This document shows positions 18,101 to 35,291 of a stretch of 64,000 nucleotides of DNA, one piece after another. This DNA is from Sedimentisphaerales bacterium (GTDB taxonomy: Bacteria > Planctomycetota > Phycisphaerae > Sedimentisphaerales > SM23-30), in assembly GCA_963666285.1 (NCBI GenBank), contig OY762711.1; one strand, 5' to 3'. Under the pieces are notes generated by a model. The model had not been told where the DNA came from. It saw only the letters and a list, made by a program, of their open reading frames with translations, and ran no database searches. Both the position numbers and the translations under genes were made by a program. Within the stretch, counting starts at the first letter, position 1; each line of letters opens with the position of its first letter.

Positions 18101-19793
18101 AAAAACTGTTAGCATTACCGGGGGTAAATACAATAGTTTTACCGTTAAGGTCAAAGCTGTTATCTCCAATGCCGGTAAAGGTTTCAGTTAAATAATCAGT
18201 ATATCCAAGGGCCATCAGAATTGTGATATGTCTTACAAGATTGTTACTATCTATAATTTCAATATTTGCAGTATATATACCATCACTCATCGAAGCTGTT
18301 GTTTCAGGATTTATACTGACAGTAATATCCTCAGAATCCCCGGCAACCAAAGTTCCTGATACCGGACTGACAGAAAGCCATGAAACCGGGACAGAGGCCT
18401 GCCAGGAAAGCTCCTCTGTTGTTTCGTTCGCAAAGACATATTCAACATTAGATTGCGAAAATGGGCCACCGGCCTGACCAAAGAAGATATAATCATCTAC
18501 CGGGCTAATATCCAGCCCAACCGGAGACTCCTGAATGATTTTTTCACAGAATGTGTACAGATCATAATAATTCCAGTACGAGCCATATCTTAAAGACGAA
18601 CTCCGGCAGCCGCTTATCCAGCTGTCAGATGCAATGGTTTCATAATAAGCAAGAAAATCTTCCCAACTTGTAGCATCTAAAAACTGCATATTGCTAGAGT
18701 TATAATCAGTTTCCGGACCACCGGAAGGGAAATTAACAGATAAACCATGCGCTCCCTGATAGGAAGCACCATGCATTTCTGCAATAGTAATATTACTCAA
18801 AGCCGTTTCGACATTTGAAGCATCCAGCAGGCATAATTCCGGATTGCTCATACCATTAGCAATAAGACTGTCAGAAAAATCATTTACCGCGGTTAATAGC
18901 GTATCAACGCCTGAAAGATCAAAAGCAGCCAAAGTTTCACCAGTTAAATATGACTGATAATAACGGTTTACAATCACAGAACCTAATTCAGGTGTGGTGA
19001 TAAAGGGATTAGTTTGTAAATCTTCGAAGATAGTGTCATAGGGCCAACCATCAGCGGGTATTTCAGCTGGAGAACCGATAAAGTAATCAACCACATCTTT
19101 GTATTCAGAAATCACTTCAACCATAGCCATGAGACACGCATCCATGCCTAAGACATCGATATTTATAAGTTCTTCTGTTTTAAGCTCTTCCAGAACTACC
19201 CTGATCTCTGCCAGAGATAATTCATCCTGACTGGTAGAATCTAGACAAATAGCTTTGGCAGGGTCTTCCTCAATCTTGGGTAAACCCAGCCCTCGCGATA
19301 AACTGTAGGCTGCAGCCTGACTTACATAGTAATCGGCCCAGCCGTTACCATGGTTCCATAGAACAAGAGCGGTTCTGGTTGACGGGAAACTGGCAGCACC
19401 CCAGGAGATAAAATCTTTCAGATTTTGCGGGTCGCCCATATTTATTTCGCCGAGATCCTCACCCCATGAGCTGCCGGGGGTATCGCCGAATTGCACATAC
19501 CCCCTGCGGGTAGTAGTCCAATTGTCATATGAGTAGCTGTAACTACCTATCCTATCAAGCATTACCACAATATTTATATTGGTATCACTGCCAATAGAAG
19601 ACATTTCGATAAAATCCAAGAGTGCATATTCTTCAAGGTCATTGTCGCCATCGACATAGATAAGGAAAGTCCATTCTTTCAAAGGTGCCGGGTTGGTTGG
19701 TGAATATTGCGCATATATATGCCCAGATATGCAGAGCAACAATATCATCACCCAGAAAGTATTGTTAATAAGAGATTTACAGGCTGTTCTCAT
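15114..19793 (-). CDS. Secreted clostripain-family (C11) cysteine peptidase, multidomain, with dockerin-like C-terminus
   Basis: WTFLIYVDGDNDLE, LVLWNHGNGW (His) and MDACLM (Cys). A BACON-like unit, two NIDO-like repeats, and two C-terminal DxDxD-type loops. Confidence 0.85.
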   Translation of the reverse strand: MRTACKSLINNTFWVMILLLCISGHIYAQYSPTNPAPLKEWTFLIYVDGDNDLEEYALLDFIEMSSIGSDTNINIVVMLDRIGSYSYSYDNWTTTRRGYVQFGDTPGSSWGEDLGEINMGDPQNLKDFISWGAASFPSTRTALVLWNHGNGWADYYVSQAAAYSLSRGLGLPKIEEDPAKAICLDSTSQDELSLAEIRVVLEELKTEELINIDVLGMDACLMAMVEVISEYKDVVDYFIGSPAEIPADGWPYDTIFEDLQTNPFITTPELGSVIVNRYYQSYLTGETLAAFDLSGVDTLLTAVNDFSDSLIANGMSNPELCLLDASNVETALSNITIAEMHGASYQGAHGLSVNFPSGGPETDYNSSNMQFLDATSWEDFLAYYETIASDSWISGCRSSSLRYGSYWNYYDLYTFCEKIIQESPVGLDISPVDDYIFFGQAGGPFSQSNVEYVFANETTEELSWQASVPVSWLSVSPVSGTLVAGDSEDITVSINPETTASMSDGIYTANIEIIDSNNLVRHITILMALGYTDYLTETFTGIGDNSFDLNGKTIVFTPGNANSFYLACVRDTVDFEVDPSGSTEISLNDDDAREILLNDHNFPFFGQLYNAIYVGSNGYLTFVADTEFTESVSSHFNMPRISAFFDDLCPISGVTRISYLIDDEKLVVTYEDIGELNSSGSQTGNVNSFQLLLFFSGVIKITWINIEAGDGLVGLSNGVIPEVFLESNLNRYQQCQQVGPIAPIALDIYLTVNQVMSQSIILSAYDDGTPQELEYVITELPVIGKLYDGEVEITTVPYSLGFNNILTYQIDDYVEGIDYFNWYANDGDSSSNIASITIEVLPPVDYITESFLAGESDLSGLSATFTPDDSEGGYSVCIDSLTDLPNDPNAGTRILNYSGNNDDIYQEIVLSDSKQVLHYGTGYSYFYVSANGNITFGSGSTVPAFSYSEHFAVPRISMFYADLNPDFGGEVYYNQLDDRVVITFNQVWDWDNNDYTFQTELFFNGVIKIHWLDVDGNSELVGVGFSEGQGIPSSFVETDFSSSSSCIANNPIALDSTIDVWAGQSAAVLLEAEFADEYIISSLPEYGDLYVGQTLIDTVPYGLGNDNILLYSADRDALSSDQFQWYCYNSTSDMMTVSNTATVDILIHSCEEILEPEPVMPEDQSVCRPVNLPLMWDVPVVETKSSLAYSETRSVELQQSILDKKLTCESEKGIPTVSALPTKAFIDIPDATVNVLMFVKYANNTVGGEVENTLNAVAQYFTDFSVTLTDEEDPILLGQLLESNQVFIIPEQQNTIVSVASALGESWSEILNEFVERGGIVIACDYFWGAYELMNSAGMMQVLADQPAIIGGMEIEKASDNLLTENMDQSFVSSIGTVAYDSTENEILISYQGKPVAVSNYMGHGMAILLGWDFYSYDDNYARLIANAVRLGISDLSYDIYLDTVNPPVNLAAEGYRFKIFDPGVLETDMQYYWKVDVSNDCGDYISGPVWSFTTSGSNVDFDGDCKVDIADMSYLAANWLNSDCSASWFRCDGADIDRSGGIDFNDLTEFAQGWLSIK

Positions 19794-20159
19794 AATTATC
19801 CGCCACGAGCGAGTAAAAATCTGCGCTCGTATCTTTGCTATATTGATTTTACAGTAATTGCCGGCAACAAGTCAACAATAGTTATGCACACTTAAATCCT
19901 GGTCACAAAGTAACCAATTACTGCCTTAATTATTTAATTACATATACTTATAATTTTATTACATAATATAAGCGTAAAGTTAACAGGCTTAGTTTTTATC
20001 GGGTAAACTATTGGTGCATTTTAGCTTACAACATATATCTACAGCGATATTATAGTCCGGCGAAATAAATTGTATTAGTTATAACGATTATAACTCTATT
20101 GATGAAAGAGCGTTGCAAACCATACAATCGTAACAATCAAATTTATTTTGATAATTTAT

Positions 20160-20202
20160 TTGCAAGTTCGACAAATGTCGTATATATTCTAAACATGTAG
20201 AA
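20160..20202 (+). promoter_or_regulatory. Sigma70-like promoter overlapped by two BlaI/MecI-type operator palindromes
   Basis: TTGCAA (20160-20165), N17, TATATT (20183-20188). Palindromes TTCGACAAATGTCGTA (20167-20182) and TTCTAAACATGTAGAA (20187-20202). Confidence 0.7.
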
Positions 20203-20327
20203 TGTGTGTTTGAGTGAAGAGTATAAATTGAATATTTAAGAGTTATGGGACCCGTCTGCAGCGGGACAATTTATAATTATAATATATTTATTTACAAATA
20301 CTTATAATCATTAAACGGAAAGATAAT

Positions 20328-20723
20328 ATGACAAAACCAACTGAAGAAAAACAAGGCAAATATGAGCTAACCGAGGCGGAATGGTCTATTATGCGGCATA
20401 TCTGGGATAACGGTGCCAGTACTGCGGGTATGGTGCAGGAGGCATTGGAAAAGAGTAAAGGCTGGGCGTACAGTACAGTAAAGACAACGATGGACCGTAT
20501 GGTAAAGAAAAATTTACTATTTACCGAGCGTATCCGCAACCTGCAATTGTTTAAGGCGTGTATCAGCCGGGAGCAGGCACAAAAAGGAGAGTTTCAAAAG
20601 ATGCTCTCACGAGCGTTTAACGGTGCTTTAACGCCAATGATGCAGTTTCTTCTGGAGAATGAAGAGATATCGAAGAACGAACTGGATGAGTTAAGGCAGA
20701 TGATAGAAGATAAGAAAAGTTAA
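20328..20723 (+). CDS. BlaI/MecI/CopY family transcriptional repressor
   Basis: LTEAEWSIMRHIW...WAYSTVKTTMDRMVKK...FNGALTPMMQFL...ELDELRQMI. Directly upstream of an M56 gene. Confidence 0.95.
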   Translation: MTKPTEEKQGKYELTEAEWSIMRHIWDNGASTAGMVQEALEKSKGWAYSTVKTTMDRMVKKNLLFTERIRNLQLFKACISREQAQKGEFQKMLSRAFNGALTPMMQFLLENEEISKNELDELRQMIEDKKS

Positions 20724-20726
20724 ATA

Positions 20727-20780
20727 AATAAGTGAAGAATTAAGATGTCGCTCCGCCTGAGGCGGATTTCATTCTGCGAC
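20727..20780 (+). repeat. Intergenic heptamer-plus-hairpin repeat element
   Basis: AATAAGTGAAGAATTAAGA followed by hairpin TCCGCC-TGA-GGCGGA (20752-20766). Matches in-gene linker L9 (AATAAGTGAAGAACTAAGA...TCCCCCTACGGCGGA). Confidence 0.6.
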
Positions 20781-20901
20781 CGTGTATTAATTCGCCTAGT
20801 AACGCCACTTACAAATTATTTGTGTAACGGAAATGAGTTTTCAACGTCTGGATATATAGACATAAAGCTATAAAATTAAGATACTTAAGAAAGGTCGGAA
20901 C

Positions 20902-23900
20902 ATGGACATTACAACCATGATCAATGAATTGGGCCAATGGTTCTGTAAAGAAAACTTTGCTATGCTGGTTCAGTCGAGCGTGTTAATAGCAGTACTAATG
21001 CTGCTGGATCTAGTTATCAAGAAACGAGTTAGAGCGGTTATTCGATATTGCATCTGGATGCTGGTACTGGTGAAGCTGGTACTGCCGACGAGCATATCTA
21101 TGCCTACCGGTTTAGGGTACTGGATAAGCGACCAATGGTCGATGGAAGCCAGAACAGTCGAACAGCCGAACAGTCGAGAAGAAATTTCAAAAGAAGGGAC
21201 ACGGGAGGATAGCGAAGCAATTGCGGCGGCGGACAGTATGGTCACAGATGGTGTACGGGTGGTACGCAACGGCGCGAAGCGTAACGGCGAAGAGTTAACT
21301 GAAACGGCGGATAGCGGCGGTATAGCGGCTAACAGCGGAAAGGTATCGAATGGTAACGGCGATGCAGCGGCGGAAGACCAAATAAGTGGAGTGACAGGCT
21401 TACGGGATATTAATATTTTGCAAAATGACGTAAGTGCAGAAAAAAAATCAGCGGGCCTACCAGATGGGATGAAGTCTGAAGTAAGAAGTCTGAAGTCTGA
21501 AAATGAAGAAATTAAGAATTCAGAATTTAAAAATCAGGAAGAAGAAGAAAAGGGATATGGGATAAGGGATAAGGGATTAGGGAATGTGCTCGCTAACGCT
21601 CGGTTAATTAATAATGAAGAAGCAACCACGAAAAAGGGGACGGAGAATCTGAAGTCTGAAGTAGGAAGTCTGAAGTCTGAAAATGAAGAAAAACAGTTAG
21701 CGGCCGGGAATCAAATAACCTGGCAGGGCTGGATATTTATGGGCTGGTCGGTTGGTGTGCTGGTGCTGGTGAGTGTGCTGGTGCAGCGGTTCTGGTTTGT
21801 TAAGAGCCTGGTAGCGCAGAGTGAGCCGGTGAAGGCCGAGCGTATAAGGCAATTGATGGCTGAATGCCGGGAGCTGGTCAGAGTAAGCAGTAAAGTAGAG
21901 CTAAGGCTGACACGTAATATGATGAGTCCGGCGGCGTGCGGATTGTGGAAGCCTGTGATACTTATGCCGGAAGAGCTGCTGGAGAAATTGAGTAAGGACC
22001 AGCTGAAAGCGGTACTGCTGCATGAGCTGTCGCATATCAAGCGAGGCGACCTGTGGGTGAACCTGGCACAGACACTTTTGCAGATAGTGTACTTCTTTAA
22101 CCCCCTGCTCTGGATCGCAAATGCGATAATTCGCAATGTGCGAGAGAAAGCGGTAGATGAGTTGGTGATCGCGAAGCTAGAAGGTGATGCCGGGATGTAC
22201 AGCAGTACACTGGTTGATATAGCCGAGATCGCATTTTCCCGACCGCATTTCAGTTTGAGGCTGGTCGGGGTAGTCGAGTCCAAGAAGGCGTTGAAAGACC
22301 GTATAAAGCATATCTTATCGAGGAAGTTTCCCAAATCAGCCAGATTGGGTGCGGCGGGTATTGTGAGTATAATTGTACTGGCGGCGGTGCTGCTGCCGAT
22401 GGCGAGCGGGCAAGGTGCACAGGATAAATATATCTTTGAATATGGAGATGGCCATAAAATCGAGCTGGTCGGAATATGCAGCTGGCCGCCAAACGGCAAC
22501 AAATGGCATAGTCCGGATGGTATGCCGCTGGATATAAAGATCCAGACCTCTGACAGCAGCGGTATAGAATCGGATGAGCCCGGCTATCAGCTGGCGTTCA
22601 GGTCTGACAAGGGAGCAGCGTTCAAGTTAGAGTATATCAAAGGCTGCAGAGCGAAAAGTGAGCTTGGCGTATTTGACAAAAATGAAATAACAGCTTTTAA
22701 GGCTCATATCAATGGCAATTTAAATAAAACCAATATTAGAATCGCGGTACCGGATGGCAACTGGGAAACGTCATGTTCGAGCAGATCGATAACAGGTACG
22801 AGCGGCCATAAAGTAGATGGTAAGCCGTTAATATTCGGCGGGATGCAGTCCGGCGATAATATGATTATTACCTGCAGTGATAATGTAGGCTATAAAAAAG
22901 CGAGCAGGATAGTTGTAATTGACAAAAGCGGAAAGATAGTTGACGGAAAATCAATCGCGGATACCGGTTTTAATAATGTTCGACAGCGGACAATAGAATA
23001 TAAGAACATTGGACCTGCCGATATTGATAAGATCGAATTTATGACATGTTCGTATAAGACACATACGTTTAAGAATGTGGTTTTGAAATCGATACCCAAG
23101 AATCTTCAGTTCAGAATCGAGGGAACTGTAACTGATGCAGATACGGGCGATCCGATTGCCGGTGCAAAGGTAGGCGATGTTTCAGGCTATAACAGCGGCA
23201 GGTTTTCTACTACGACAGACGAAAACGGTAAATACGAATACCTGACATATTATGAAGAGCATAATATTGTTGCGAAAGCAGCCGGTTATGAAACTAAGCA
23301 GGAGATACTGCTGACGAAGCTGATCGGGAAAGAAGATAAAAAGACTATTGATTTTAATCTGAAGGATGAAAGAAAACAGGGATCAGGGATCGGGGATAAG
23401 GGATTAGGGAAAGTGCTCGCTAACGCTCGGTTAATTAATAATGAAGAAGCAACCACGAAAAAGGGGACGGAGAATCTGAAGTCTGAAGTAGGAAGTCTGA
23501 AGTCTGAAAGTGAAGAAATTAAGAATTCAGAATTAAAAATTAAGGAAGAAGAAGAAGAAGAAGAAGAAGAAAAGGGATATGGGATAAGGGATAAGGGATT
23601 AGGGAATGTGCTCGCTGACGCTCGGTTAATTAATAATGAAGAAGCAACCACGAAAAAGGGAATGGACAATCTGAAGTCTGAAGTAGGAAGTCTGAAGTCT
23701 GAAAAAGAATATATTAAGAAAGAAGAAAATAACCCAAAAGAAAGTGAAGAGCTAAGAACTAAGTATACTTTGTCAGAATTATTAAAAAATATACAAAATG
23801 CTGATAATGTTAGAAGTCAGCTACTATCGAATTCACAAGGTAAAGCATTGATCAATATCACATTAAGTAAAATGGCTACCAACGGGAAAGGTAAGCTACA

Positions 23901-26900
23901 GGATGAGTCTGTCAAGAAGTTTGATACAGACGACTATAGCTGCGTTATTGACAAAAACGGTAATTTCACCATAGACTGGTACCAGAGCGTTGTCAAAAGA
24001 AGGTTTGATTTACATTCTGTCGATCAACTAAACAATACAACACAGGCTAAGCCACTATGGTCAAATGTTGACGCACGCACTTTTATTGACCCTAATAAAT
24101 GGATAGTTTATGATGCGATAAAAGATGAATGTTCTGCAAAAAACGCAAAAGCACGAGCTAAGCATGCAACAAATCCGCTATCGATAATATTTGATTTTGA
24201 TATTGAACGACTTTACAGCGTAAACCTTCATTCTCAAATCCGAAACATTGTCCTCTTGTATGCAAATAATGGAACTAAGCCTAAAATAGCTGCTGAGACC
24301 GTTAACGGTATACCCTGTATTAAGATTTCAATCTTTAAAGAAGCTGAAAATGATAATGGCAACATAATGAATAAGCTAATTGAGTTCTGGGTTTCACCGG
24401 AGATGGGACATTCGCTGATTAAATATAGATTTTCTATGGGCAAATGGTCCCAAGGAATAGACCTCCCCCTTTGGCAAAGTTATGATGCAAGCTATATAGA
24501 GTCCAAAGAAAATCATGGAGTGTGGCTGCTTAATAAGCTGGAAATGTCACATAAAGATATTACGATGGGCAATATTGAAACTCTTCGGGTAGAGTTTGTT
24601 GAGACAGAGATTGATACTGCTATTTCTGGTGAAGTATTTACTACCAAGGGTTTGGGCGTAACAGATAAGACTAAGTTTGTTGATAAATTGATGGAAGAGA
24701 AAGAAAGTCAGAGATATGGCGAAGAAATTAAGAAAGAAGAATTAAAAATTAAGAAAGAAGAAGAAGAAAAGGGATATGGGAAGGAAAACATAAAGGATGA
24801 AGTATCAAGTATCAAGTATAAAAAGAATTCAAACACGAAAGACGGAAAAGATGCGGAAATGGGGACGGACCCCATTAATTCATTGGATATTAAACAAGAA
24901 TGGAAAACAATTGCAGAATCATATAAAGTGAATTCCAATATTCCGGTGCAAGTTGCTTCAGTGGCAACGGATTACGGACAGGTAGTCTTTGGAAATGCGT
25001 ACAGTAAAGATGATGGAGCCTGGATATCAACAACTGACGATATTGACAGAAATATTTGTGAGGTACGCATTGTCGCAATCGATATCGATGGTAATATATT
25101 ACTTCAAAATGGCGGAGGAAGCAGCACTGTAAACAAAACAAATACACTGCAATGTCGATTTGACACTGAATTGAGCAAAGTCAGTCTTTTTGAAATTCAG
25201 ATCAGGAATAATGAAACCACAAAAGATGCAGAAGCTGAAATTAATATAGAAACGATTAAGGGATGGGTAATAGATTATTATAAAGATTATGACCTGGAGC
25301 ATCCGAGTGATCGAATATTGAAAAGAAGATTCCTCGAATGGAATGAACCGGCAGTTGACAGCAGCAACCGACATCTGATAAATTGCACGGTTGAAGAGAC
25401 AAGCCGGAAAAGCGGAGATGATATTATAGTTATCAAGGGCGAGGACTTTACCTTTAACCCGGACGGCAGTTGTGCATCGAAGAAGAAAACAAACACAAAT
25501 TCACTATTTGATTATATCGCGAGCGATATTGTCGGTAGATACATAAGAAACAATATAGATGATGGCTATAGCTGGAAAAGTTATGTTGAGAAAGGAAATT
25601 TAGGAACAGATGAAAATGGTAACTATACATATAGGATTAAATATGAGTTGAGATATAATGATAGCAGCTATTCTTATACATATTTCACGAAAACATTTAC
25701 GGTGAATCCGGATTACGAGATAATTGCGATTGAAGAACTGCCGAAGGAGCTGACCAGTTATGATAAACGCAGGATTGCGAACATGGTGAGTGAATACAGA
25801 GAGAAGATGAGGAAAAGGGATATTGCCGGGATACTTGAGATGCTGGTGATTGAGGATGATAAACATCTGGAGATGGTTAAGCAATATCTTGAAGAAACTT
25901 TATACGGGAAATGGTCAGATTGGAATTTTTATTCAGAAGAGAATAATAAGTTCGTTGACGTTTATGAAGATGGTAATAATAACTTTGAAGCCTGGACACT
26001 GACTAAATCTTTGGATGATAAATGGACTATAGGAGTGATACCGGTAAGGTATAAGAATGGGGAATTTAAGCTTGACAACTTTAACAAGGAAACAATAGAA
26101 AAGTGTAAAATAATTAAGACAACAGATATAGACAGTATGGGCAAGATATTGCAGCAGAAGAATGCCGAGGGATGGGTTCATGCCGAAGGAAAAGAACTGA
26201 AGAAGCTTTATCTGGATAAGATAACTCATGAACAGAGAAGCCTGGCGACATTAAGCGTTGCTGATAAGTACAAATTAGAGATGATGAGATTTTGTACAAG
26301 AGAAGAAATTGAGAAACGGTTGAACGAACTTGAGAGTATGACACCGGAAGAGCTGAAGGAGAAAATGATATCGGAAGCCCTACTACGACCAGCTCAGAAC
26401 AAAGCGGCAAGAGGAGAGAAGTCTGAAGTAAGAAGTCTGAAGGCTGAAAGTGAAGAAATTAAGAATTCAGAATTAAAAATTAAGGAAGAAGAAGAAAAGG
26501 GATATGGGGTGGAAAACATAAAGGATGAAGTATCAAGTATCAAGTATAAAAAGAATTCAAACACGAAAGACGGAAAAGATGCGGAAATGGGGACGGACCC
26601 CTTTAATTCAACCTATCTGCAAAATTCCGGCAGTATATGGGATCTGCACAAGACAGACAGGATGCAGGATATCTTTATGCTTGACCTGGAAACGGGGCTG
26701 AAAGCGAAGCTTAAAGATATCGCTGATATCGAACAGCTGAAAAGGACACAAGAATCATTCAACGCAGGTGATATCTATTATTGCTATGATCAACAGCCAT
26801 GGCTGGGGATAGTTCAAGAAGCACATTTCGCGAATGGAAATATAGAATTTGACCCGGCTTTGAAAAGGACAGTAATCAGCGGGTTAAACAATATTATTGT

Positions 26901-29900
26901 TATAACTAAAGATAACAGGACGTTCGATATAAACTTCAGCTATTCAGATGAGAATGGCTGTATGATAAAATACCGAGAGATAGCGGCAGGTGAACCGATG
27001 CCGAAGATTAAGTTCAAGGCGCAGGTTAGCACAGAAATTCGGTTTGCCGCTATTGACAATAAGGCCGTGCCAGGTTATGACAATTCAGACTGCAGCATAG
27101 TCAGTAAAGATGAATATGAAGAGATTATCGAAAAAACTAAAAAGGATAGTAAAGGCAGGTTAATTACAGCACCTAACGTAACATTATTTGACGGGGAAAA
27201 AACGGACATTTCGTTATCGACTGAAATATTTCGCCAACTAGGATATGATAATATGGATATCCGGTTTACTCCTTATGTAATGGATAATAATATAGTATCT
27301 CTTGCGGTCAAATTCAATCGGGAAATAGACAGCGGCAGACGGGCCGAAATACAAAAATATGTCAGGTTTGAAGCTGGTCAATATGGCGTACTGCCTCTAA
27401 AGAATATTATCGGGATTGATTACCTGATGATTGTCAATTGTCAGATTATTGAGCCTGACGATGGCAGCAACGGTAATCATGGCAGCTGGGAAAAAGATAA
27501 AAAGGAGAAAAGTGATCCCCTATTCGATAGAGAGTACCTGGGCGAGTGGAAGATGCCAGAGCTAGATATTAAAGAGGGAAAGAAAATTAAAAGCTTAAGG
27601 CTGAACATAAAAGATAACGGTACTATGACGATCAGATATATCGATATGAATGGAGATACAATATTACTTGATGCAGATTATGATGTTCAGGATGGCATGG
27701 TCATAGCCGGGAACGGGGATAATATCTACGTAAGATGCTATTTCAAAGATGATATATTTTCAGCTGAGATGCCTGAATTTGATATGACAGTACTGTTGGA
27801 ACAAGTGATGCCGGAAGCTAATTTAAAGACTGACGGCGAAGAAATTAAGAATTCAGAATTAAAAATTGAGGAAAATATAAAGGATGAAGTATCAAGTATA
27901 AAGTATAAAAAGAATTCAAATACGAAAGATGGAAAAGATGCGGAAATGGGGACGGACCCCATTAATTCACTGGATATTAAACAAGGATGGAAAACAATTG
28001 CAGAATCATATAAAGTGAATTCCAATATTCCGGTGCAAGTTGCTTCAGTGGCAACGGATTACGGACAGGTAGTCTTTGGAAATGCGTACAGTAAAGATGA
28101 TGGAGCCTGGATATCAACAACTGACGATATTGACAGAAATATTTTTGAGGTACGCATTGTCGCAATCGATATCGATGGCAATATATTACTTCAAAATGGC
28201 GGAGGAAGCAGCACTGTAAACAAAACAAATACACTGCAATGTCGATTTGACACTGAATTGAGCAAAGTCAGTCTTTTTGAAATTCAGATCAGGAATAACG
28301 TAGAAATGGGGACGGACCCCATTAATTCAACGTTCAAAACAGTTGTACTTAAAAATTCAATCCAGGCGATCAATTTAAGTAATAATCAGAAAACATATGA
28401 TTTTTATGTACTGGATATGGCAAGCGGAAATGTGAAAGAGTACGAAAATGTACAAGATTTCAATCATTTGACAAATATCCTGAATAGCGTCGGCAAAGGA
28501 GATATGGCGTTTGTATTTACTAAAGACAGATGTATGCCGGTAATCAACTGGGTTCGGAATGCTCGGCCTGTTGAAAAAGCCGATGAAAGACAGAGCCACT
28601 ACTTCTACAGTGCGAAGTGGTATCCGGACGATAATATAATTACCAATGAAGGCAAACGATATTATGTATATTTCAAGGATTGCGATGAAAACGGGTGTGA
28701 GATATATTACAGGGAGATCATGCCGGGAGAATCGCTGCCGAAAAATGTCGAGAGAGAATATGTCAATGAAAATAACGAGATAGTATCAATAGAGATGGAA
28801 CTGTTCAGTCTGAATGGAACTGAATACAGTATAGACACAGAAAGGATAATTAAAAACGGCGACGAGCTGGATGAGACCCAGATAAGTTTTCTGCGGAAGA
28901 TCTCAGAAAGTGGAAAAGTGAATTTCTGGGAAAAGCTGCCAAAGATAAAAGCGTTTAAGACAGAAAAGGTAGATATGAGCTCACTAGGGGCAATATTGCC
29001 AGCCGACAAATTCCAAATAGACAAGCTGACCGTCATCCCAAATGATATAAACGGCGGAAGTTTATGCCTGGATATTGATCTTGCCGGTTCGTTTCATGCC
29101 GTCGACTATACAGGCGATAACAAAACAGATGCGATAATGAGTTCGTTCACACGCAAGGTTACGAATATTATGCCTGAAAACAAGGCGGCATTGCTGGAGC
29201 TGTGCGGAGTAAATGGCATTCATTATTTCATGCTGGTTAAAATGCAAAATGCAGGCAGTGATCTGAAGGATGAAAATGAAGAAATTAAGAATTCAGAATT
29301 AAAAATTGAGGAAGAAGAAGAAGAAGAAAAGGGATATGGGATAAGGGATAAGGGATTAGGGAATGTGCTCGCTGACGCTCGGTTAATTAATAATGAAGAA
29401 GCAACCACGAAAAAGGGGACGGACCCCATTAATTCCTTTACCCCCTCCTGGATTGGACTGCCAGAAGGGTGGGACAGAGATAAGGCCTGGAAAGAGATAA
29501 CCAGCTACCTGGAAAATAATATAAAAAGAGATTTGCCGGAAAGTAATATAAGTTATTTCAATGATGACATAAAGCATGGACCGGTTGAAATATCGTACCA
29601 TACACAAAAATATCAAGTTGAAAGTCCGGTATCTAAGGCAAGAATTGATACAGAGAAACAAACAGAAACAGGCCCTCAGCCAGACGGACTGATAATCAGG
29701 ATATATCTAACTGAAAATATTGAACAGATGGTAAGGCCGCAAACTCTGGATAAAACTTTCTGGAAAGTTGATTTCCTGAAAATATATCTGCCTGAACTTA
29801 AATTGTTCCTGATGGCCAACATATCATACGGCAATCAAACCGACCAGACACTTCTCAGTAAATATAGAAATTTAAACGGAATAATGGCTAACATTATCGA

Positions 29901-32900
29901 AAGTACGCAAACCACAAAAATCACAGAAGTGGATAACCAAAGGTACGATACAGTTGATAAAAAATATATGGATAAGATGGCGGGTGAGGTTTTGTTCTGC
30001 GGTGAGTATAAGCATATAAGCCGGAGACGTGAGATAGAGACGCCCAGCACACTGCTTGTAACTCGAGGGGCAGACGGAGAGATAAACGCTTTGGCGTATA
30101 TGCCGTGGATGGGCAGCTATGACATGGCGGTTGGTGATAAAGAAGGTAAGCTGTCGGGCTATTTTACGTGGCGGGCAGAGTCGGAAGGTAAGCCCGGGTT
30201 CGATACGGAGCTGGAGCTGGGTGATGGCAAGGCGGTATTGAACCGGCACGGGATACGTGAAGACAAGGTAAATGTGGAGTTGAGTGTGGCGGAAGGAGCG
30301 AGGTTTAGCCCAAATAGCAGGCCGGACAGCTATTGTGCAGATAATATATTTATGCGCGGGCTGGATATAGCAGTTGAAACGAGTAAGGAATTTGAAGTTT
30401 ACGACTGGGATAACAGCGGCGAGGCGATGGCGAGCTATACGATAGAGGTGTATAATGCCGGGAAAGAAGAGGTTGTGGTGCCGGCGGGCACGTTTGAGGC
30501 GAACCATTATGTGCTGACGCAGACCAGTACCGGAAATACGTGGTATAAGAAACAAAACGGACATATTACCGATTATTGGGTGATGGATGACGGGATAATT
30601 GTGCGGGTGCTTCGACACAGGGAGCCGTATGAAATACAGTTAATGAAAAATGAAAGAATACAGGGATCAGGTTTCAGAGGTCAGGGATCAGGGAAGGTGC
30701 TCGCTGACGCTCGAGCTAATAATACTGTATCTAAAGGGGAATATGAGATATGCGGTACTGTAACAACAGAAATGTCAGAAGGTCGCTGGGAAGAGTTTTT
30801 TGCCAGAATGGATGCCGCCAAGACAGAAAAAGAGCTGAATGATATTGTAACGTCAGAGAGGCAGCCAGGAAAAGAACCAGCGGCAAATGTTGAGGTAAAA
30901 CTAATCGGCCGGTATGGGAATAAACCGTTTGAGCGAATAACATCAACCGATAATAATGGCAATTACTGGTTCAAAGACCTGCCGATCGGCAGTTACAGAA
31001 TATCATGCCAAGATAACATTGTTTATAATCGAACCGGCAGTATAGTGACAATGGTCGGTGAAGGAGATAAACCGATAGAGTTTGTTTTGTCCGGTAAGAA
31101 GAGAGCCGAGATGGATATCGAACTTCGTGATAATAACCTGCTGACTGTAACAGGGAGAGTACTTGATCAAAAAGGCAGGCCAATCACAAATGCTGTTGTA
31201 ACCGGGACAAGTACCCCACTTGAAAATGGCGGGATAGGCGAAACAAGCGAACAAACGAGGATTTTCAGTCCGCAGATAATAACCGGCAAAACTGATGCCG
31301 AGGGCAGGTATCAGCTGGCAGGGTTTGAAGCAGCCCATTATATAAACGTATTTCGCAGTTTGATCAATACGAATAAGGATGCACGCGGACCATATAAATT
31401 CTTTGCTGATATTACGGTACGGGCGGATGGGTATGTGCCGGCTGAGAGGAAAGCGTACAGAGTTCCGCTGGCAGGTGAAGAACAGCTATATCGTGCCAGG
31501 CGGCTGCTGAAAGCATATGAGAAATTGGATACTGATGCCAAAGTGAAGGAAAACCCTGAGCCGGTATGGCCGTTTGCGAAATGTGAAGGTTCAAAGCTGG
31601 TTGGTGTAGATATAGTAATGAAGTCTGAAAGAATAAGTGAAGAACTAAGAACTAAGAGTGAAGAGTTCAGGAATCCCCCTACGGCGGAAGCTAATTTAAA
31701 GACTGACGGCGAAGAAATTAAGAATTCAGAATTAAAAATTAAGAAAGAAGAAAATGCAAATACAGCAGTTGGAAATGATGAGCTAGTCGTTGAAGATGCG
31801 GAAAAAGAGACGGTCAGCATAAATTCCAGTTTAATTTTTTCAGAATCTGCATATGACAAGATGAAAAAAGAGCTGGTTCAGGAGACCGCGGAAAATACAA
31901 AAGAGTCTTCTATCGATCAATTTGTCGGTATCTGGGAAAATCCGGGATTTATCGGTAACGATGAAGGAAGGCCAAAGTACACATACTTACTGATAATATA
32001 CGAAGACGGAAAAGTCATACATGAAGAACTCGAGCTGGGCGTTTATAAAGTTGAAGAAGGAAAATATGATATAAAACAGAACGCCATTATTATCTGCGGC
32101 AGCAAGGGTGAAGAATATGCAATTTGCAAGATAGACAAAATCGGGAAACTAATTGTTGCCCAAAAAGCATATTCAATATCAACCAGATATAATAAAATCA
32201 TGTCAACAACAGACATATCTACCAAAACAATGAAGCAATGGTTCAGCTTGCGGTCTGTAGTACCATTTTTAGGTAAATGGTATCTGTTTAATCATATCAT
32301 AGTAGATAACATTGGAAATAATTCATCTCTGGTTAAAAGTGCAGAGTGTAAGTTTAATAATGACTCGACTTTTGATATTACATTAGACGATGGAACAGGA
32401 CAGGATGCGATTTCTGGTTTTCAGTGTAACTTCAAAGACGGTAAAATTAATATTTTGATGGGCAATTCCATCTTTGGTGTATGCCGTATCGATGACGGCG
32501 ACCTGATAATCGAACAGCCAAACCTTGGAACGCGAATGATATTTAAACGAGAGAAGCCATCAGATAAAAAAGAACTGACAGAGGCGGATAAGGGAGAGAT
32601 AAAGGCGTTGGTGCTAAAGTTCTGGCGAAAGATACGAGAGAAGGACATGGATGCCCTGATAAGCATGCATATTATCGAAAGTAACGAGCATCGAGAGCAG
32701 CTGGAGAAATATCTGGGGATGATATTGGACGATATTAGACCGGGCGATCCGGGGTATCCGAGTGAAGAGAATTTGCGGATAGTTGATGTTTTTGCCGAAA
32801 ATGATTATTTTGCGGCTACATTACTGCAAAAGGTATCCGATGAATGGATAGTGAGGGATATCCTGGTGAAAGAAGAGGCCGGCGAGTATAAGATGAATAT

Positions 32901-34743
32901 GATGACGCCTGATTACCTGGAACAGATGTTGGTAGTCAAGACAGCAAGCGGAGAAAAAATCGCAGAAAAGATAAAAGAGAAGAATATCGAGATATGGGAG
33001 AGGTTTGATGACAAAAAGCTGAACGAGGTATATAACAGTTTAATAGCCGGCCAGGAAAGAGGGATAATCGCGGCGAAATATGCGAAGGAAAACGGGATGA
33101 AGCTGGTGAGTGTGTTTACTGAAGAAGTGATACGTAAGCGGCTGGAAAAGCTGAAGGCATTGACTCCGGAAGAGCTGAAGCGGGAGATATTGAGTGGAAG
33201 TGACCCGATGAACATTAAAGTTGAAGAACAGGAAAGCGGTAGAGAAGAAAAAGAAAGGCTTAAAGCTGAAAAGCCATCTGCGGAAAGTGGTTTTGGGCCG
33301 GTGGATTTTGAAGGGTTTTACCCGGATAGTGAAGATGGCGGCAGGAAACTGGATGAATTGATGGCGGCGAAAGATCGCGAGCTGCGGGCTGCGGACGAGA
33401 TAATAGAGACGGTACGAAACGGGCTGCGGCGGTATAGCGGCCGGGAAAATGTGCTGCGGTGGATTGGCAATATGTTTATCTGGGGTAAGGAGCCGCAGAA
33501 TATAAAGGCGATTGAGCTGATGTACCATGCAAGCGAATCGAAGGATTTCGGGACGGCGGTTTATTTCGGGCTGTCGGTGGTAGATGATATGACAGCTGAG
33601 ATAATCGCGGCAATGGGCGAGGTGGCGATGGAGACGGACGATTATCATAACCAGATCGGTCGGATACACTGGGGTTGTAAGAATCGCGGCAAGGTGGATG
33701 AGCTGACAGAGTATATAAAGCAGTATCTCAGAGATGAAGACCCGGCAAAACGGGAAAAGGCAAAGGATCTGATAGATTATTTTGCTGACAGTAAGGCGTT
33801 TATGGCAAAGAAAGCGGAAGAATATAAAAAAGAGATGGAGCAGAAATATGCCGGGCGGAAGGATGAGTTTAAGGAAAGATTGCTGACGGGCAGCTCTAAA
33901 GAGCGTATGTCGGTGCTGAAAGAGGAAGGCTTATTTACTATACTGGATGAATCGTTTATCGACGGGCTGGCGGCGTGTCTGAAAGACAAGGACGACGATG
34001 TTCGCAACCAGGCGGCGCGGATACTGGGCAATAAATTCGTATGGAGCGGTAAGGAACAGAATGAGCGGGTGATCGAGCTGCTGACCGCCCTGCTGGATGA
34101 TCCATCGCGTGAGGTTCGGTATACGGCGAATTATTTTGGCTTGTCGACGGTGAGCAAGCCGAGTGAAAAGCTGGTTGGGAAAATGCTGGAGACGGTGCTG
34201 GATGACCGGGAGATCAATTATTACGGGCGTGCAATTGGCGGAGTGCGTCGGAACAGTAAGTCGAGCGATGAGATTTTGAAGGGCTGGATGGAAGCCGGGG
34301 GTGAAAAAGCGGTAAAGGCATATGAGATATACGAGGATGTTTTGGGCAAACCGCTACCGAAAGAATATGCGGAGCGTTATGCCGGGCAGAAGTCTGATGT
34401 GCATGCCGGAGCGGCGGCGATGATATTCAGACTTGAACCGATTGGCAAGGAAGAATTGAGTCAGACTGTCTTGAGCTGTCTGAATGATAATAACCTGTTG
34501 GGGAAAGCGAGCGAGCTGTATATCATTGAGAAGCGTGAATCGGCGGTTGGAGTGGTAATATGTGAGAACCTGGCCGACAGAAACGCGGTGCGAGATGCGC
34601 TGGCGAAGAAAGGTTTGACAACACAGGGCTATGTGCATGGGATGATAGGCGTTGTCGGCAGCGGCTGGATGGAGCAGGGTAATCTTGACAAGATCAGGGA
34701 ACAATACAAACAAGATAAAGTAAGAATAAACAATGTGCGGTAA
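20902..34743 (+). CDS. Giant BlaR1/MecR1-like M56 metallopeptidase receptor (4613 aa) with modular ectodomain
   Basis: N-terminal TM helices, SPAACGLWKPVILMP, HELSHIKRGD zinc motif at 22021, YFFNPLLW, REKAVDE and LKDRIKHIL. About 4100 aa of modules follow, including carboxypeptidase-regulatory-like Ig, secretin-fragment-like, lipocalin-like, VPAGTF (DUF3108-like) and HEAT-like regions. Confidence 0.9.
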   Translation: MDITTMINELGQWFCKENFAMLVQSSVLIAVLMLLDLVIKKRVRAVIRYCIWMLVLVKLVLPTSISMPTGLGYWISDQWSMEARTVEQPNSREEISKEGTREDSEAIAAADSMVTDGVRVVRNGAKRNGEELTETADSGGIAANSGKVSNGNGDAAAEDQISGVTGLRDINILQNDVSAEKKSAGLPDGMKSEVRSLKSENEEIKNSEFKNQEEEEKGYGIRDKGLGNVLANARLINNEEATTKKGTENLKSEVGSLKSENEEKQLAAGNQITWQGWIFMGWSVGVLVLVSVLVQRFWFVKSLVAQSEPVKAERIRQLMAECRELVRVSSKVELRLTRNMMSPAACGLWKPVILMPEELLEKLSKDQLKAVLLHELSHIKRGDLWVNLAQTLLQIVYFFNPLLWIANAIIRNVREKAVDELVIAKLEGDAGMYSSTLVDIAEIAFSRPHFSLRLVGVVESKKALKDRIKHILSRKFPKSARLGAAGIVSIIVLAAVLLPMASGQGAQDKYIFEYGDGHKIELVGICSWPPNGNKWHSPDGMPLDIKIQTSDSSGIESDEPGYQLAFRSDKGAAFKLEYIKGCRAKSELGVFDKNEITAFKAHINGNLNKTNIRIAVPDGNWETSCSSRSITGTSGHKVDGKPLIFGGMQSGDNMIITCSDNVGYKKASRIVVIDKSGKIVDGKSIADTGFNNVRQRTIEYKNIGPADIDKIEFMTCSYKTHTFKNVVLKSIPKNLQFRIEGTVTDADTGDPIAGAKVGDVSGYNSGRFSTTTDENGKYEYLTYYEEHNIVAKAAGYETKQEILLTKLIGKEDKKTIDFNLKDERKQGSGIGDKGLGKVLANARLINNEEATTKKGTENLKSEVGSLKSESEEIKNSELKIKEEEEEEEEEKGYGIRDKGLGNVLADARLINNEEATTKKGMDNLKSEVGSLKSEKEYIKKEENNPKESEELRTKYTLSELLKNIQNADNVRSQLLSNSQGKALINITLSKMATNGKGKLQDESVKKFDTDDYSCVIDKNGNFTIDWYQSVVKRRFDLHSVDQLNNTTQAKPLWSNVDARTFIDPNKWIVYDAIKDECSAKNAKARAKHATNPLSIIFDFDIERLYSVNLHSQIRNIVLLYANNGTKPKIAAETVNGIPCIKISIFKEAENDNGNIMNKLIEFWVSPEMGHSLIKYRFSMGKWSQGIDLPLWQSYDASYIESKENHGVWLLNKLEMSHKDITMGNIETLRVEFVETEIDTAISGEVFTTKGLGVTDKTKFVDKLMEEKESQRYGEEIKKEELKIKKEEEEKGYGKENIKDEVSSIKYKKNSNTKDGKDAEMGTDPINSLDIKQEWKTIAESYKVNSNIPVQVASVATDYGQVVFGNAYSKDDGAWISTTDDIDRNICEVRIVAIDIDGNILLQNGGGSSTVNKTNTLQCRFDTELSKVSLFEIQIRNNETTKDAEAEINIETIKGWVIDYYKDYDLEHPSDRILKRRFLEWNEPAVDSSNRHLINCTVEETSRKSGDDIIVIKGEDFTFNPDGSCASKKKTNTNSLFDYIASDIVGRYIRNNIDDGYSWKSYVEKGNLGTDENGNYTYRIKYELRYNDSSYSYTYFTKTFTVNPDYEIIAIEELPKELTSYDKRRIANMVSEYREKMRKRDIAGILEMLVIEDDKHLEMVKQYLEETLYGKWSDWNFYSEENNKFVDVYEDGNNNFEAWTLTKSLDDKWTIGVIPVRYKNGEFKLDNFNKETIEKCKIIKTTDIDSMGKILQQKNAEGWVHAEGKELKKLYLDKITHEQRSLATLSVADKYKLEMMRFCTREEIEKRLNELESMTPEELKEKMISEALLRPAQNKAARGEKSEVRSLKAESEEIKNSELKIKEEEEKGYGVENIKDEVSSIKYKKNSNTKDGKDAEMGTDPFNSTYLQNSGSIWDLHKTDRMQDIFMLDLETGLKAKLKDIADIEQLKRTQESFNAGDIYYCYDQQPWLGIVQEAHFANGNIEFDPALKRTVISGLNNIIVITKDNRTFDINFSYSDENGCMIKYREIAAGEPMPKIKFKAQVSTEIRFAAIDNKAVPGYDNSDCSIVSKDEYEEIIEKTKKDSKGRLITAPNVTLFDGEKTDISLSTEIFRQLGYDNMDIRFTPYVMDNNIVSLAVKFNREIDSGRRAEIQKYVRFEAGQYGVLPLKNIIGIDYLMIVNCQIIEPDDGSNGNHGSWEKDKKEKSDPLFDREYLGEWKMPELDIKEGKKIKSLRLNIKDNGTMTIRYIDMNGDTILLDADYDVQDGMVIAGNGDNIYVRCYFKDDIFSAEMPEFDMTVLLEQVMPEANLKTDGEEIKNSELKIEENIKDEVSSIKYKKNSNTKDGKDAEMGTDPINSLDIKQGWKTIAESYKVNSNIPVQVASVATDYGQVVFGNAYSKDDGAWISTTDDIDRNIFEVRIVAIDIDGNILLQNGGGSSTVNKTNTLQCRFDTELSKVSLFEIQIRNNVEMGTDPINSTFKTVVLKNSIQAINLSNNQKTYDFYVLDMASGNVKEYENVQDFNHLTNILNSVGKGDMAFVFTKDRCMPVINWVRNARPVEKADERQSHYFYSAKWYPDDNIITNEGKRYYVYFKDCDENGCEIYYREIMPGESLPKNVEREYVNENNEIVSIEMELFSLNGTEYSIDTERIIKNGDELDETQISFLRKISESGKVNFWEKLPKIKAFKTEKVDMSSLGAILPADKFQIDKLTVIPNDINGGSLCLDIDLAGSFHAVDYTGDNKTDAIMSSFTRKVTNIMPENKAALLELCGVNGIHYFMLVKMQNAGSDLKDENEEIKNSELKIEEEEEEEKGYGIRDKGLGNVLADARLINNEEATTKKGTDPINSFTPSWIGLPEGWDRDKAWKEITSYLENNIKRDLPESNISYFNDDIKHGPVEISYHTQKYQVESPVSKARIDTEKQTETGPQPDGLIIRIYLTENIEQMVRPQTLDKTFWKVDFLKIYLPELKLFLMANISYGNQTDQTLLSKYRNLNGIMANIIESTQTTKITEVDNQRYDTVDKKYMDKMAGEVLFCGEYKHISRRREIETPSTLLVTRGADGEINALAYMPWMGSYDMAVGDKEGKLSGYFTWRAESEGKPGFDTELELGDGKAVLNRHGIREDKVNVELSVAEGARFSPNSRPDSYCADNIFMRGLDIAVETSKEFEVYDWDNSGEAMASYTIEVYNAGKEEVVVPAGTFEANHYVLTQTSTGNTWYKKQNGHITDYWVMDDGIIVRVLRHREPYEIQLMKNERIQGSGFRGQGSGKVLADARANNTVSKGEYEICGTVTTEMSEGRWEEFFARMDAAKTEKELNDIVTSERQPGKEPAANVEVKLIGRYGNKPFERITSTDNNGNYWFKDLPIGSYRISCQDNIVYNRTGSIVTMVGEGDKPIEFVLSGKKRAEMDIELRDNNLLTVTGRVLDQKGRPITNAVVTGTSTPLENGGIGETSEQTRIFSPQIITGKTDAEGRYQLAGFEAAHYINVFRSLINTNKDARGPYKFFADITVRADGYVPAERKAYRVPLAGEEQLYRARRLLKAYEKLDTDAKVKENPEPVWPFAKCEGSKLVGVDIVMKSERISEELRTKSEEFRNPPTAEANLKTDGEEIKNSELKIKKEENANTAVGNDELVVEDAEKETVSINSSLIFSESAYDKMKKELVQETAENTKESSIDQFVGIWENPGFIGNDEGRPKYTYLLIIYEDGKVIHEELELGVYKVEEGKYDIKQNAIIICGSKGEEYAICKIDKIGKLIVAQKAYSISTRYNKIMSTTDISTKTMKQWFSLRSVVPFLGKWYLFNHIIVDNIGNNSSLVKSAECKFNNDSTFDITLDDGTGQDAISGFQCNFKDGKINILMGNSIFGVCRIDDGDLIIEQPNLGTRMIFKREKPSDKKELTEADKGEIKALVLKFWRKIREKDMDALISMHIIESNEHREQLEKYLGMILDDIRPGDPGYPSEENLRIVDVFAENDYFAATLLQKVSDEWIVRDILVKEEAGEYKMNMMTPDYLEQMLVVKTASGEKIAEKIKEKNIEIWERFDDKKLNEVYNSLIAGQERGIIAAKYAKENGMKLVSVFTEEVIRKRLEKLKALTPEELKREILSGSDPMNIKVEEQESGREEKERLKAEKPSAESGFGPVDFEGFYPDSEDGGRKLDELMAAKDRELRAADEIIETVRNGLRRYSGRENVLRWIGNMFIWGKEPQNIKAIELMYHASESKDFGTAVYFGLSVVDDMTAEIIAAMGEVAMETDDYHNQIGRIHWGCKNRGKVDELTEYIKQYLRDEDPAKREKAKDLIDYFADSKAFMAKKAEEYKKEMEQKYAGRKDEFKERLLTGSSKERMSVLKEEGLFTILDESFIDGLAACLKDKDDDVRNQAARILGNKFVWSGKEQNERVIELLTALLDDPSREVRYTANYFGLSTVSKPSEKLVGKMLETVLDDREINYYGRAIGGVRRNSKSSDEILKGWMEAGGEKAVKAYEIYEDVLGKPLPKEYAERYAGQKSDVHAGAAAMIFRLEPIGKEELSQTVLSCLNDNNLLGKASELYIIEKRESAVGVVICENLADRNAVRDALAKKGLTTQGYVHGMIGVVGSGWMEQGNLDKIREQYKQDKVRINNVR
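21471..21690 (+). repeat. In-frame linker repeat L1
   Basis: Encodes KSEVRSLKSE-EEIKNSEFK-EEEE-KGYGIRDKGLG-NVLANARLINNEEATTKKGTENL-KSEVGSLKSE. Confidence 0.9.
23356..23763 (+). repeat. In-frame linker repeat L2 (two tandem units)
   Basis: Near-identical DNA to L1 and L7. Contains (GAA)9 and ends with SEELRTK. Confidence 0.9.
24718..24882 (+). repeat. In-frame linker repeat L3
   Basis: Encodes EEIKKEELKIK-EEEE-KGYG-ENIKDEVSSIKYKKNSNTKDGKDAEMGTDPINS. Palindrome at 24861-24873. Confidence 0.9.
24784..25211 (+). repeat. Copy 1 of a ~428-bp near-identical internal duplication
   Basis: Matches 27871-28298 at offset 3087. By eye, 4 substitutions in the ~330-nt domain part. Confidence 0.95.
26418..26610 (+). 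repeat. In-frame linker repeat L4
   Basis: Encodes KSEVRSLKAE-EEIKNSELKIK-EEEE-KGYG-ENIKDEVSS...MGTDPFNS. Palindrome at 26589-26601. Confidence 0.9.
27813..27969 (+). repeat. In-frame linker repeat L5
   Basis: Encodes EANLKTDG-EEIKNSELKI-ENIKDEVSS...MGTDPINS. Palindrome at 27948-27960. Confidence 0.9.
27871..28298 (+). repeat. Copy 2 of the ~428-bp internal duplication
   Basis: Matches 24784-25211. Confidence 0.95.
28303..28329 (+). repeat. Minimal linker L6 (palindrome site only)
   Basis: GAAATGGGGACGGACCCCATTAATTCA, identical to 27943-27969. Confidence 0.9.
29261..29435 (+). repeat. In-frame linker repeat L7
   Basis: Encodes LKDENEEIKNSELKI-E7-KGYGIRDKGLG-NVLADARLINNEEATTKK-GTDPINS. Palindrome at 29415-29427. 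Confidence 0.9.
30643..30723 (+). repeat. In-frame linker repeat L8
   Basis: CAGGGAT-type heptamers, then AGGGAAGGTGCTCGCTGACGCTCGAGCTAATAA (QGSGFRGQGSGKVLADARANN). Confidence 0.8.
31618..31755 (+). repeat. In-frame linker repeat L9
   Basis: Encodes KSERISEELRTKSEEFRNPPTA-EANLKTDG-EEIKNSELKIKKEEN. Confidence 0.85.
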
Positions 34744-34750
34744 CAGGTGC

Positions 34751-34879
34751 CAGGGAAGGAAAGCCGCGAAGCGGTAAACAAATCAATAACTCAAACTGAC
34801 CGATGGTCAGTTTGAGAGGTATTAGTTATTAGTTATTTGGTATTAGGGAAGGTTTGCCGCAAAGCGGCAGGCTAATTAA
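34751..34879 (+). repeat. Intergenic composite repeat (hairpins plus GTATTAG-type heptamers); may also act as a terminator
   Basis: Perfect 12-bp stem CTCAAACTGACC-GAT-GGTCAGTTTGAG (34790-34816), a heptamer tract, then AGGGAAGG-TTTGCCGCAAAGCGGCA-GGCTAATTAA. Confidence 0.75.
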
Positions 34880-35291
34880 ATCATTAATGTAACAATTTGC
34901 ATTGAATTATGTTACCGCAATAAAAAATGTAAAATCGGTCACTTTGAGTCAATAAAAATAATCCGGGAAATTTAGCTGGAAATCGGTTATAAAGGAACCA
35001 TGTGCTTGTGTTGGGCATTGTTTTTTGACATTAGCAAAAAAAGGAATGCAAAGTTATGACTCGGCTTATTACTATAATAATATCATTTTCATTATTCTGG
35101 ATATGCAGTTGCAGCAATAGGCAAGATAGCAGTTCGGTTGATATTCGAAGTCTGAATTCAGAAAATAAGCGGGCAGACAACGGAAGAGATAAAGTATAAG
35201 TATGGATATAAATACTTATGACCGGCGATTGGGTGCAGATCGAAAAAATAATCGGAACAGAAAATATAAAGGCACACTGAAAATTGAAGTG

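Follow-up and report, generated by a model that had tools for sequence, protein, structure and literature searches.

The gene pair at positions 20328 to 34743 is probably a non-canonical BlaI/M56 envelope sensor of a family with hypervariable ectodomains, in which joints filled with repeats take part in some in-frame crossovers, in a manner like DoMo of type I restriction-modification specificity genes. The window, that is, the whole stretch of 64,000 nucleotides analysed, corresponds to C1:4512001-4576000 of a 6.35-Mb genome in 4 contigs. Its named relatives belong to Sedimentisphaerales and other Phycisphaerae, and the host most likely falls there too.

The repressor gene blaI is located at 20328-20723 on the plus strand and encodes a 131-aa protein of the BlaI/MecI/CopY family (PF03965, E 1.1e-30). 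It precedes, on the same strand, an uninterrupted ORF of 4613 aa at 20902-34743 (PF05569, E 2e-46), which is protein P0002 of the library. BlaI and an M56 protein form a textbook pair, and at least 5 other BlaI/M56 pairs are present in the same genome. No transpeptidase family is found in the receptor by profile searches, and no SxxK, SxN and KTG triad of a penicillin-binding domain is found in it at the usual spacing; NF000326 scores 149 on aa 1-503, with 400 required, and the match spans the protease part only. The initial annotation had described blaI followed by a BlaR1-type ORF of 4613 aa with intact frame and no recognisable penicillin-binding domain, and it is borne out in each respect. 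The protease part occupies 20902-22410 (+), scores 159 bits in the PF05569 profile search versus a cut-off of 31, and matches BlaR1 structures at E 9e-7. It possesses four hydrophobic helices (aa 17-35, 43-61, 275-293 and 479-497) and two zinc motifs, H374-E375-x-x-H378 (HEXXH) and E415-x-x-x-D419 (EXXXD), and ends in a signal-peptide-like P-M-A-x-G. HEXXH and EXXXD are the zinc motifs given for BlaR1 in the accessible part of PMC9834060.

Two tandem palindromes at 20167-20202, 161 and 141 bases before blaI, form a putative BlaI operator. Operator-like sites occur in 16 of 58 blaI upstream regions (this one included and one locus counted twice), versus a mean of 4.9 and a maximum of 13 in shuffled controls; 13 of the 15 other positive rows have the site at -46 to -70. 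Near-matches in C1 number 13, three of them outside ORFs, and two of these three are the palindromes at 20167-20202. Autoregulation of the blaI operon through these palindromes may be predicted from the motif. A clostripain-family protein of 1559 aa with BACON and nidogen-like domains is encoded divergently from blaI (15114-19793, minus strand); its gene shares the intergenic region with blaI and may be a target of the repressor. Among the neighbours of 130 loci the sole conserved match is an ECF sigma factor, at 3 of 130, two of these being the same place. Farther along the window, an ORF of 4483 aa (52972-64000, minus strand) runs past the window end; its C-terminal part has the zinc motif HExxHxxGxxH, and the part scanned matches no other Pfam family. 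Each of contigs C2-C4 measures about 65 kb and has both an integrase and one large ORF; C2 and C3 are 64-95% alike in long blocks. The three are probably related phages.

The outer part, about 4100 aa, is composed of modules, all on the plus strand. Module A (22411-23091), an unnamed PVC domain common in M56 ectodomains, falls near unnamed PVC/Armatimonadota clusters in the Atlas (0.94, low recognition). It is followed by module B (CarboxypepD_reg, 23098-23373) and by module C (23761-24711), which has 24% identity to a stand-alone 493-aa ORF elsewhere in the genome. Modules D, E and G occupy 24883-26415, D being half of an A-type domain. Modules H, I and J occupy 26611-27810; I is weakly secretin-like (PF00263, E 0.069), and the Atlas offers for H-I only a lead to secretin (0.87). 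A recent 430-bp duplicate of the L3 tail and module D (98%, 8 differences) lies at 27869-28298. It is succeeded by H2 and I2 (28327-29259), distant paralogues of H and I, and by module K (29437-29901). Module LM (29962-30654) has a LolA-like open beta-barrel in the predicted structure (pLDDT 95.5; 2h1t, Z 13.6, rmsd 3.2 over 160 aligned residues; 6ntr, Z 12.2; LolA 8t5j, Z 9.7); the predicted fold alone would indicate no function. Module N (30730-31620) contains two CarboxypepD_reg/SdrD-B-like domains and is bounded by L8 and L9. Modules J2, J3 and G2 (31837-33216) are collinear in the orthologue P0001, and module Z (33259-34740) is a HEAT-repeat domain. The single-sequence structure model of aa 1898-2990 has a pLDDT of 29.7. 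GC3 ranges from 0.31 to 0.58 between ectodomain modules. The modules were said at first to be largely unrelated; exceptions are D and D2 (98% identical in DNA), G and G2 (65 of 208 aligned residues) and H-I and H2-I2 (67 of 281).

Nine linkers, together about 540 aa, are present on the plus strand. L1 (21472-21690) is a repeat-derived stretch in the TM2-TM3 loop, at the position of EL1 in BlaR1, and joins no modules. The others are L2, the longest (23374-23760), L3 (24712-24882), L4 (26416-26610), L5 (27811-27969), L6, consisting of the palindrome word only (28303-28326), L7 (29260-29436), L8 (30655-30729) and L9 (31621-31836), which has a decayed palindrome word at its end. The linkers consist of runs of about three 7-mers, words phased at 10 bases and small palindromes. 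Self-BLASTN gives 28 repeat pairs within the locus at 78-100% identity, all borne by linkers except for the 430-bp duplication. L2-L9 had been described in the initial annotation as near-identical in DNA and built of sub-blocks in varied order; this description stands, but it was incomplete as regards L1, and the nature of the sub-blocks as repeat vocabulary of the host was missed.

Borders defined by homology coincide with linkers to a large extent. Of 133 other M56 proteins, 43 are matched by ectodomain windows, and the order of the matches varies widely. A search with aa 2468-3640 of 1.84 billion representatives gives 407 hits; among the 150 listed, alignment ends cluster at linkers, and an M56 domain is present in 40 of the 149 listed non-self hits. 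In a comparison with 383 proteins outside the clade, 0 of 280 ectodomain alignments cross L2-L7 or L9, and 6 cross L8. Alignments end at the linker edge in 29 of 38 cases at L2, 61 of 92 at L8 and 13 of 38 at L9, and start there in 27 of 38 at L8; after L7, 13 of the 15 alignments that reach its edge start at module K. The edges of L3-L6 are reached by only 0-2 outside alignments each, so the absence of crossing is weak there. That linkers mark module borders is supported by the alignment ends. As a description of the linkers as module joints it holds in part, since L1 belongs to a loop, the junction at L8 also occurs without it, and several borders (A/B, E/G, H/I, I/J, J2/J3 and J3/G2) carry no linker; D/E and K/LM carry one short repeat word each.

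The linker words are those of the intergenic DNA of the genome, where they occur in changing order. Period-7 runs in C1 are located outside called ORFs in 274 of 316 cases, and the receptor gene alone contains 15 of the 42 inside, compared with 27 in all other called ORFs of C1 and about 0.07 expected per 13.8 kb. By tandem-run period, C1 has 110 runs of period 7 versus 2-38 for periods 5, 6 and 8-11. Among 133 other M56 ORFs with DNA, two have one run each and none has more; these are the unrelated genes L082, with the run near the end of the protease domain, and L119. With up to 4 mismatches allowed, 11 additional copies of linker block A, 8 of C and 21 of H are found, 0 of them inside ORFs longer than 250 aa. 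Outside the receptor gene, block copies are interrupted by a stop in the frame of the linker in 22 of 22 cases for block C, 3 of 3 for E and 21 of 40 for H, and in 8 of 9 for A and 13 of 17 for B, the reversed-block control being uninformative for the last two (15 and 12 hits, equal to the test). Block D occurs only in the receptor gene and in one distant M56 paralogue, and block F in the receptor gene only; no intergenic DNA matches either of them at 6 mismatches or fewer, and resemblance is the basis for assigning them an intergenic origin. For most blocks the comparison of sequences demonstrates that the linkers are intergenic 7-mer and hairpin repeat words of the host, read in frame. Seven pairs of linker copies differ by 11 non-synonymous and 6 synonymous codon changes (small numbers), which indicates that the likeness of linkers is kept at the DNA level.

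Clusters of at least 5 linker words are found in 3 of 2377 ORFs of C1, namely the receptor gene, the distant paralogue and one probable chance case. The paralogue (G000:C1:6078597-6082385, 1262 aa) carries linker DNA in the first loop and just after TM4, 84-91% alike over 42-83 bases. No stretch of metagenome_contigs fits a 28-base linker pattern, and the matches to L2 DNA in 24 family genomes are confined to short heptamer stretches in 2 of them, 0 in M56 genes; in a weak search, the L2 peptide matches 0 of 962 candidates. After the gene, at 34771-34965, lies a dispersed element of about 170 bases (a hairpin and a heptamer run) with matches at 87 places of the genome, itself included; 11 of the 87 are at least 150 bases long and 85% alike. 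In a relative, G012 (L042:1280-1590 and L049:1480-1570), heptamer arrays extend into ordinary genes at the 3' end, where they are translated into tails of the proteins. The palindrome word has 5 further copies in C1 and is absent from the printed flanks of the two Y1 loci inspected; its origin from a REP-associated transposase is unsupported.

An assembly artefact, in which repeat-flanked cassettes are stitched into a single ORF, is very improbable. It would fit the fact that short-read contigs break at every linker tested, so that the module order is without independent bridging. Against it, short-read contigs from two runs of one sample, possibly the source sample, show 0 differences in the unique segments of the region compared (25212-35300), and read depth over unique parts is even (25-27 in X1; about 1.6-fold over the 430-bp duplicate). 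The modules are single-copy in the 6.15-Mb contig and, the D duplicate within the gene aside, no module has a second DNA-level copy elsewhere in the genome; a merger of paralogous M56 genes, named initially as the refuting case, is therefore unsupported. Orthologues also retain A-B, LM-N, J2-J3-G2-Z and the overall order of shared modules, and all nine joints are in frame. Run X3 covers the gene patchily and shows only first-copy letters in the duplicate. One X3 contig with about 480 unlike bases from 30989, inside module N, is set aside as evidence; coverage holes prove nothing.

Within the size range 1320-4200 aa, the best three M56 hits are P0001 (2379 aa), P0078 (2084 aa) and P0003 (3236 aa). 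Together with the query they form one clade (support 100/96) in a tree of 50 rows, that is, the 45 best-scoring domains and paralogues. Among 283 M56 proteins, clusters of at least 5 linker words occur only in the four clade members and one paralogue; linkers of orthologues are judged from peptide words, not from DNA, and P0001 has one clear cluster only. With a slash for linker words, the query order is A B / C / D E G / H I J / D / H I / K LM / N / J J G Z. P0003 reads A B / H, other, I, others / ... / LM N / Z, tail. P0078 reads A / A / G / J J, other, H I, and P0001 reads other, LM / E-like, J J G, Z, tail. Neighbours change accordingly: B is followed by C in the query and H in P0003, N by J2 in the query and Z in P0003, LM by N in the query and an E-like module in P0001, and G by H in the query and J2 in P0078. 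The same module may occupy different slots: D occurs twice in the query, and H stands after B in P0003, after G in the query and at the end in P0078. The proteins compared are orthologues with 76-87% identity in M56 rather than alleles within a species, and the modules they share with the query have diverged to 45-71% identity. The neighbourhood LM-N is present in P0003 without L8, and module C has no significant match in P0003. The proposed test of whether other M56 genes share linkers with different module orders is thus answered positively by the three closest orthologues.

Recombination at linkers is suggested by two observations. The 430-bp duplication (24782-25211 and 27869-28298, 98%) starts within L3 and takes in module D, and the palindrome word closes it. 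In run X4, from another study, contig 26 (391 nt, depth 4) reads 27630-27841, 31736-31801 and 29411-29523 with 1, 5 and 4 differences, that is, the end of J, an L9-type piece and the start of K, which account for its whole length. J is joined to K, D2, H2 and I2 are missing, and both joints are in frame and in linkers. The rearranged junction rests on this single contig; in its first joint about 40 bases are shared, which leaves room for an assembly hop, and its second joint shares no more than 4 letters, the linker that precedes K being a different one. No well-supported linker-to-linker junction variant is found in X1 and X2, the two deepest runs, where joints with 23-28 bases on one side are counted as repeat noise and where contigs drop rare forms. 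The initial view of linkers as recombination joints finds some support in one duplication and one in-frame contig, and lacks junction variants in X1 and X2. Its statement that the window encodes no recombinase is confirmed, with no match to PF00589, PF00239 or PF01797. Inverted repeats of at least 25 bases are absent from 19000-36000. The genome as a whole has 9 four-helix-bundle genes over the cut-off, 5 Y1 transposase matches, and 19 tyrosine and 2 serine recombinases; no match to PF13366 is found. Tandem four-helix-bundle genes, two whole and a third partial, lie behind a 14-base repeat run at G000:C1:45310-46200, and several other such genes are flanked by heptamer runs.

Ectodomains are replaced throughout the M56 family, with linkers or without. 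The comparison comprises 159 proteins and 557 pairs at 72% M56 identity or more, with an ectodomain stretch counted as shared from 40% identity upwards; the pairs are interdependent, and since DNA is missing for most of them, other types of joint are possible. In pairs without linker words the median shared fraction of the ectodomain is 0.08 at 90-100% M56 identity (20 pairs, two of them duplicates; 10 of 20 share nothing), 0.11 at 78-90% (227 pairs) and 0.0 at 72-78% (304 pairs). The six pairs within the linker clade share 0.0-0.4, no less than other pairs. The break in similarity falls sharply after TM4 family-wide. In P0233, P0243, P0228, P0255, P0220 and L090 the M56 parts are 88-95% identical, while the ectodomains are largely unrelated right after TM4 and no such linker words are present. 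An M56 search of metagenome_contigs gives 10 loci, the best at 54%. Because relatives without linker words replace ectodomains as much or more, linkers are probably not the general cause of shuffling, and the earlier claim that they make the receptor combinatorial is unsupported. As judged from these sequences, linkers appear unnecessary for shuffling, and there is no sign that they speed it.

Four other readings of the linkers and of the outer part are to be weighed. A bolder one takes the intergenic repeats as domesticated into universal in-frame joints, so that any repeat-flanked domain can be plugged in, with exchange ongoing between living strains, all within a PVC-wide family of 'polymorphic receptors' whose BlaI/M56 core hardly varies and whose outer part is exchanged whole at the end of TM4, like the tips of polymorphic toxins; it is rather doubtful. 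Somewhat less probable still is passive filler, according to which heptamers colonise disordered loops and are homogenised by conversion, while modules move as in the rest of the family and linkers are never crossover points. It agrees with L1 in a loop that joins no modules, with the six alignments across L8 and the adjoining LM and N in P0003, with the ectodomain sharing of clade pairs and with the heptamer arrays of G012 that extend into gene ends. It disagrees with the 98% duplication, which has its start in a linker and a linker word at its close, with the X4 contig that switches neighbours inside linkers, and with multi-block linkers such as D, which occur in only two M56 genes of the genome and were therefore copied between M56 joints. 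Quite improbable is an active combinatorial system with dedicated joints that recombine at high rate in populations, possibly through a trans-acting enzyme responsible for spreading the intergenic repeats as well, resulting in a mixture of receptors. Every joint is in frame, the sub-blocks are interchangeable, the X4 contig is rearranged, and the genome offers four-helix-bundle genes (several heptamer-flanked), Y1 transposase matches, and tyrosine and serine recombinases. However, none of these genes lies in the window, the genome has no silent cassette pool, X1 and X2 give no well-supported linker-to-linker joint (rare variants being dropped by contigs), and shared modules at 45-71% identity point to slow turnover.

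The remaining reading concerns function and is compatible with either view of the linkers. TM4 would be an internal signal peptide, and the outer part would be released as a periplasmic or surface protein whose variety is under selection, e.g. by phage or predator contact. In 169 of 170 subfamily members TM4 consists of a basic stretch, a hydrophobic core and P-M; 143 of the 169 fit P-M-[AGSV]-x-[AGS], a putative signal peptidase I site, and conservation stops there. Module C, moreover, resembles a stand-alone, exported-looking protein. In BlaR1, as far as the accessible part of PMC9834060 describes it, the sensor instead remains attached to the terminal helix, through which it signals. Ectodomain shedding is unlikely on balance, but the motif at the end of TM4 makes it a live alternative to the multi-input sensing proposed initially.

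The sensor reading with some crossovers in linkers is preferred and would operate as follows. BlaI would bind the two palindromes before its own operon, and the membrane zinc protease, by analogy to BlaR1, would cleave BlaI once the outer part changes state. The 4100-aa outer part is a mosaic from a pool of domains exchanged family-wide by PVC M56 proteins, as seen in the comparison of ectodomains. In one clade, intergenic 7-mer and hairpin repeats have invaded floppy joints, lost in-frame stops and spread from joint to joint, as is visible in the linkers themselves. Ordinary homologous recombination or gene conversion would then use the near-identical linkers as crossover points, with modules duplicated, dropped or replaced in frame as a result; this step is inferred from one duplication, the module orders of orthologues and one contig. 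Linkers would thus be a by-product that takes part in shuffling, neither a programmed system nor its general cause. The likeliest signal, suggested weakly by one predicted LolA-like fold and the weak secretin-like hits, may be a state of the envelope (lipid, lipoprotein or outer-membrane assembly).

The locus illustrates a way in which abundant intergenic repeats can turn into protein linkers and sites of recombination, and strain genomes would allow the crossovers to be mapped. It exposes a large family of PVC receptors whose signalling cores are 90-95% identical but carry entirely different outer parts. For non-beta-lactam BlaIR systems, the sensed signal becomes testable by domain swaps on one reporter. 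Diverse M56 C-termini, DoMo, heptamers in ORFs and Rickettsia palindromic elements (RPEs) are already in print. In literature searches, with subscription papers and bioRxiv supplements outside the scope, no description is found of M56 receptors with joints derived from repeats, or of near-identical M56 domains whose ectodomains have been replaced.

The pair resembles BlaI-BlaR1 and MecI-MecR1 (MEROPS M56; PDB 8EXP-8EXT; PMC9834060, accessible part) in the repressor gene before a four-helix gluzincin, HEXXH and EXXXD, the outer C-terminal part and the upstream palindromes. It differs from them in lacking a penicillin-binding domain and a beta-lactamase neighbour, in the 4100-aa mosaic, and in a loop of about 200 aa with repeat DNA at the EL1 position. 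With the CenIR-type non-canonical BlaIR (bioRxiv 10.64898/2026.04.08.717257) it shares an M56 protein with a C-terminus other than a transpeptidase; the accessible text of that preprint counts 254 architectures in a set of about 15,000 proteins, about 6% with a transpeptidase domain, has 0 occurrences of planctomycetes, and treats no multi-module giants, swapping between near-identical M56 domains or DNA linkers. Intergenic heptamers (MacGregor 2015, PMC4679880), RPEs (PMC1779305) and Borg tandem repeats (PMC9879509) are likewise mostly intergenic, enter coding sequence and are tolerated at ends or in disordered parts. Here, by contrast, nine multi-block copies fill the joints of one gene, and the accessible parts of those sources describe no link to domain exchange. 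A site-specific shufflon or cassette system is not matched, with no linked recombinase, inverted sites or silent cassettes. A further comparison is with DoMo (PMC3077401, accessible part), in which domains move, duplicate or vanish by recombination at flanking intragenic repeats, also between loci. Part of the modules here likewise lie between near-identical DNA repeats. DoMo has two slots, one domain type and dedicated repeats, whereas the receptor has about twenty unlike domains and repeats drawn from intergenic words.
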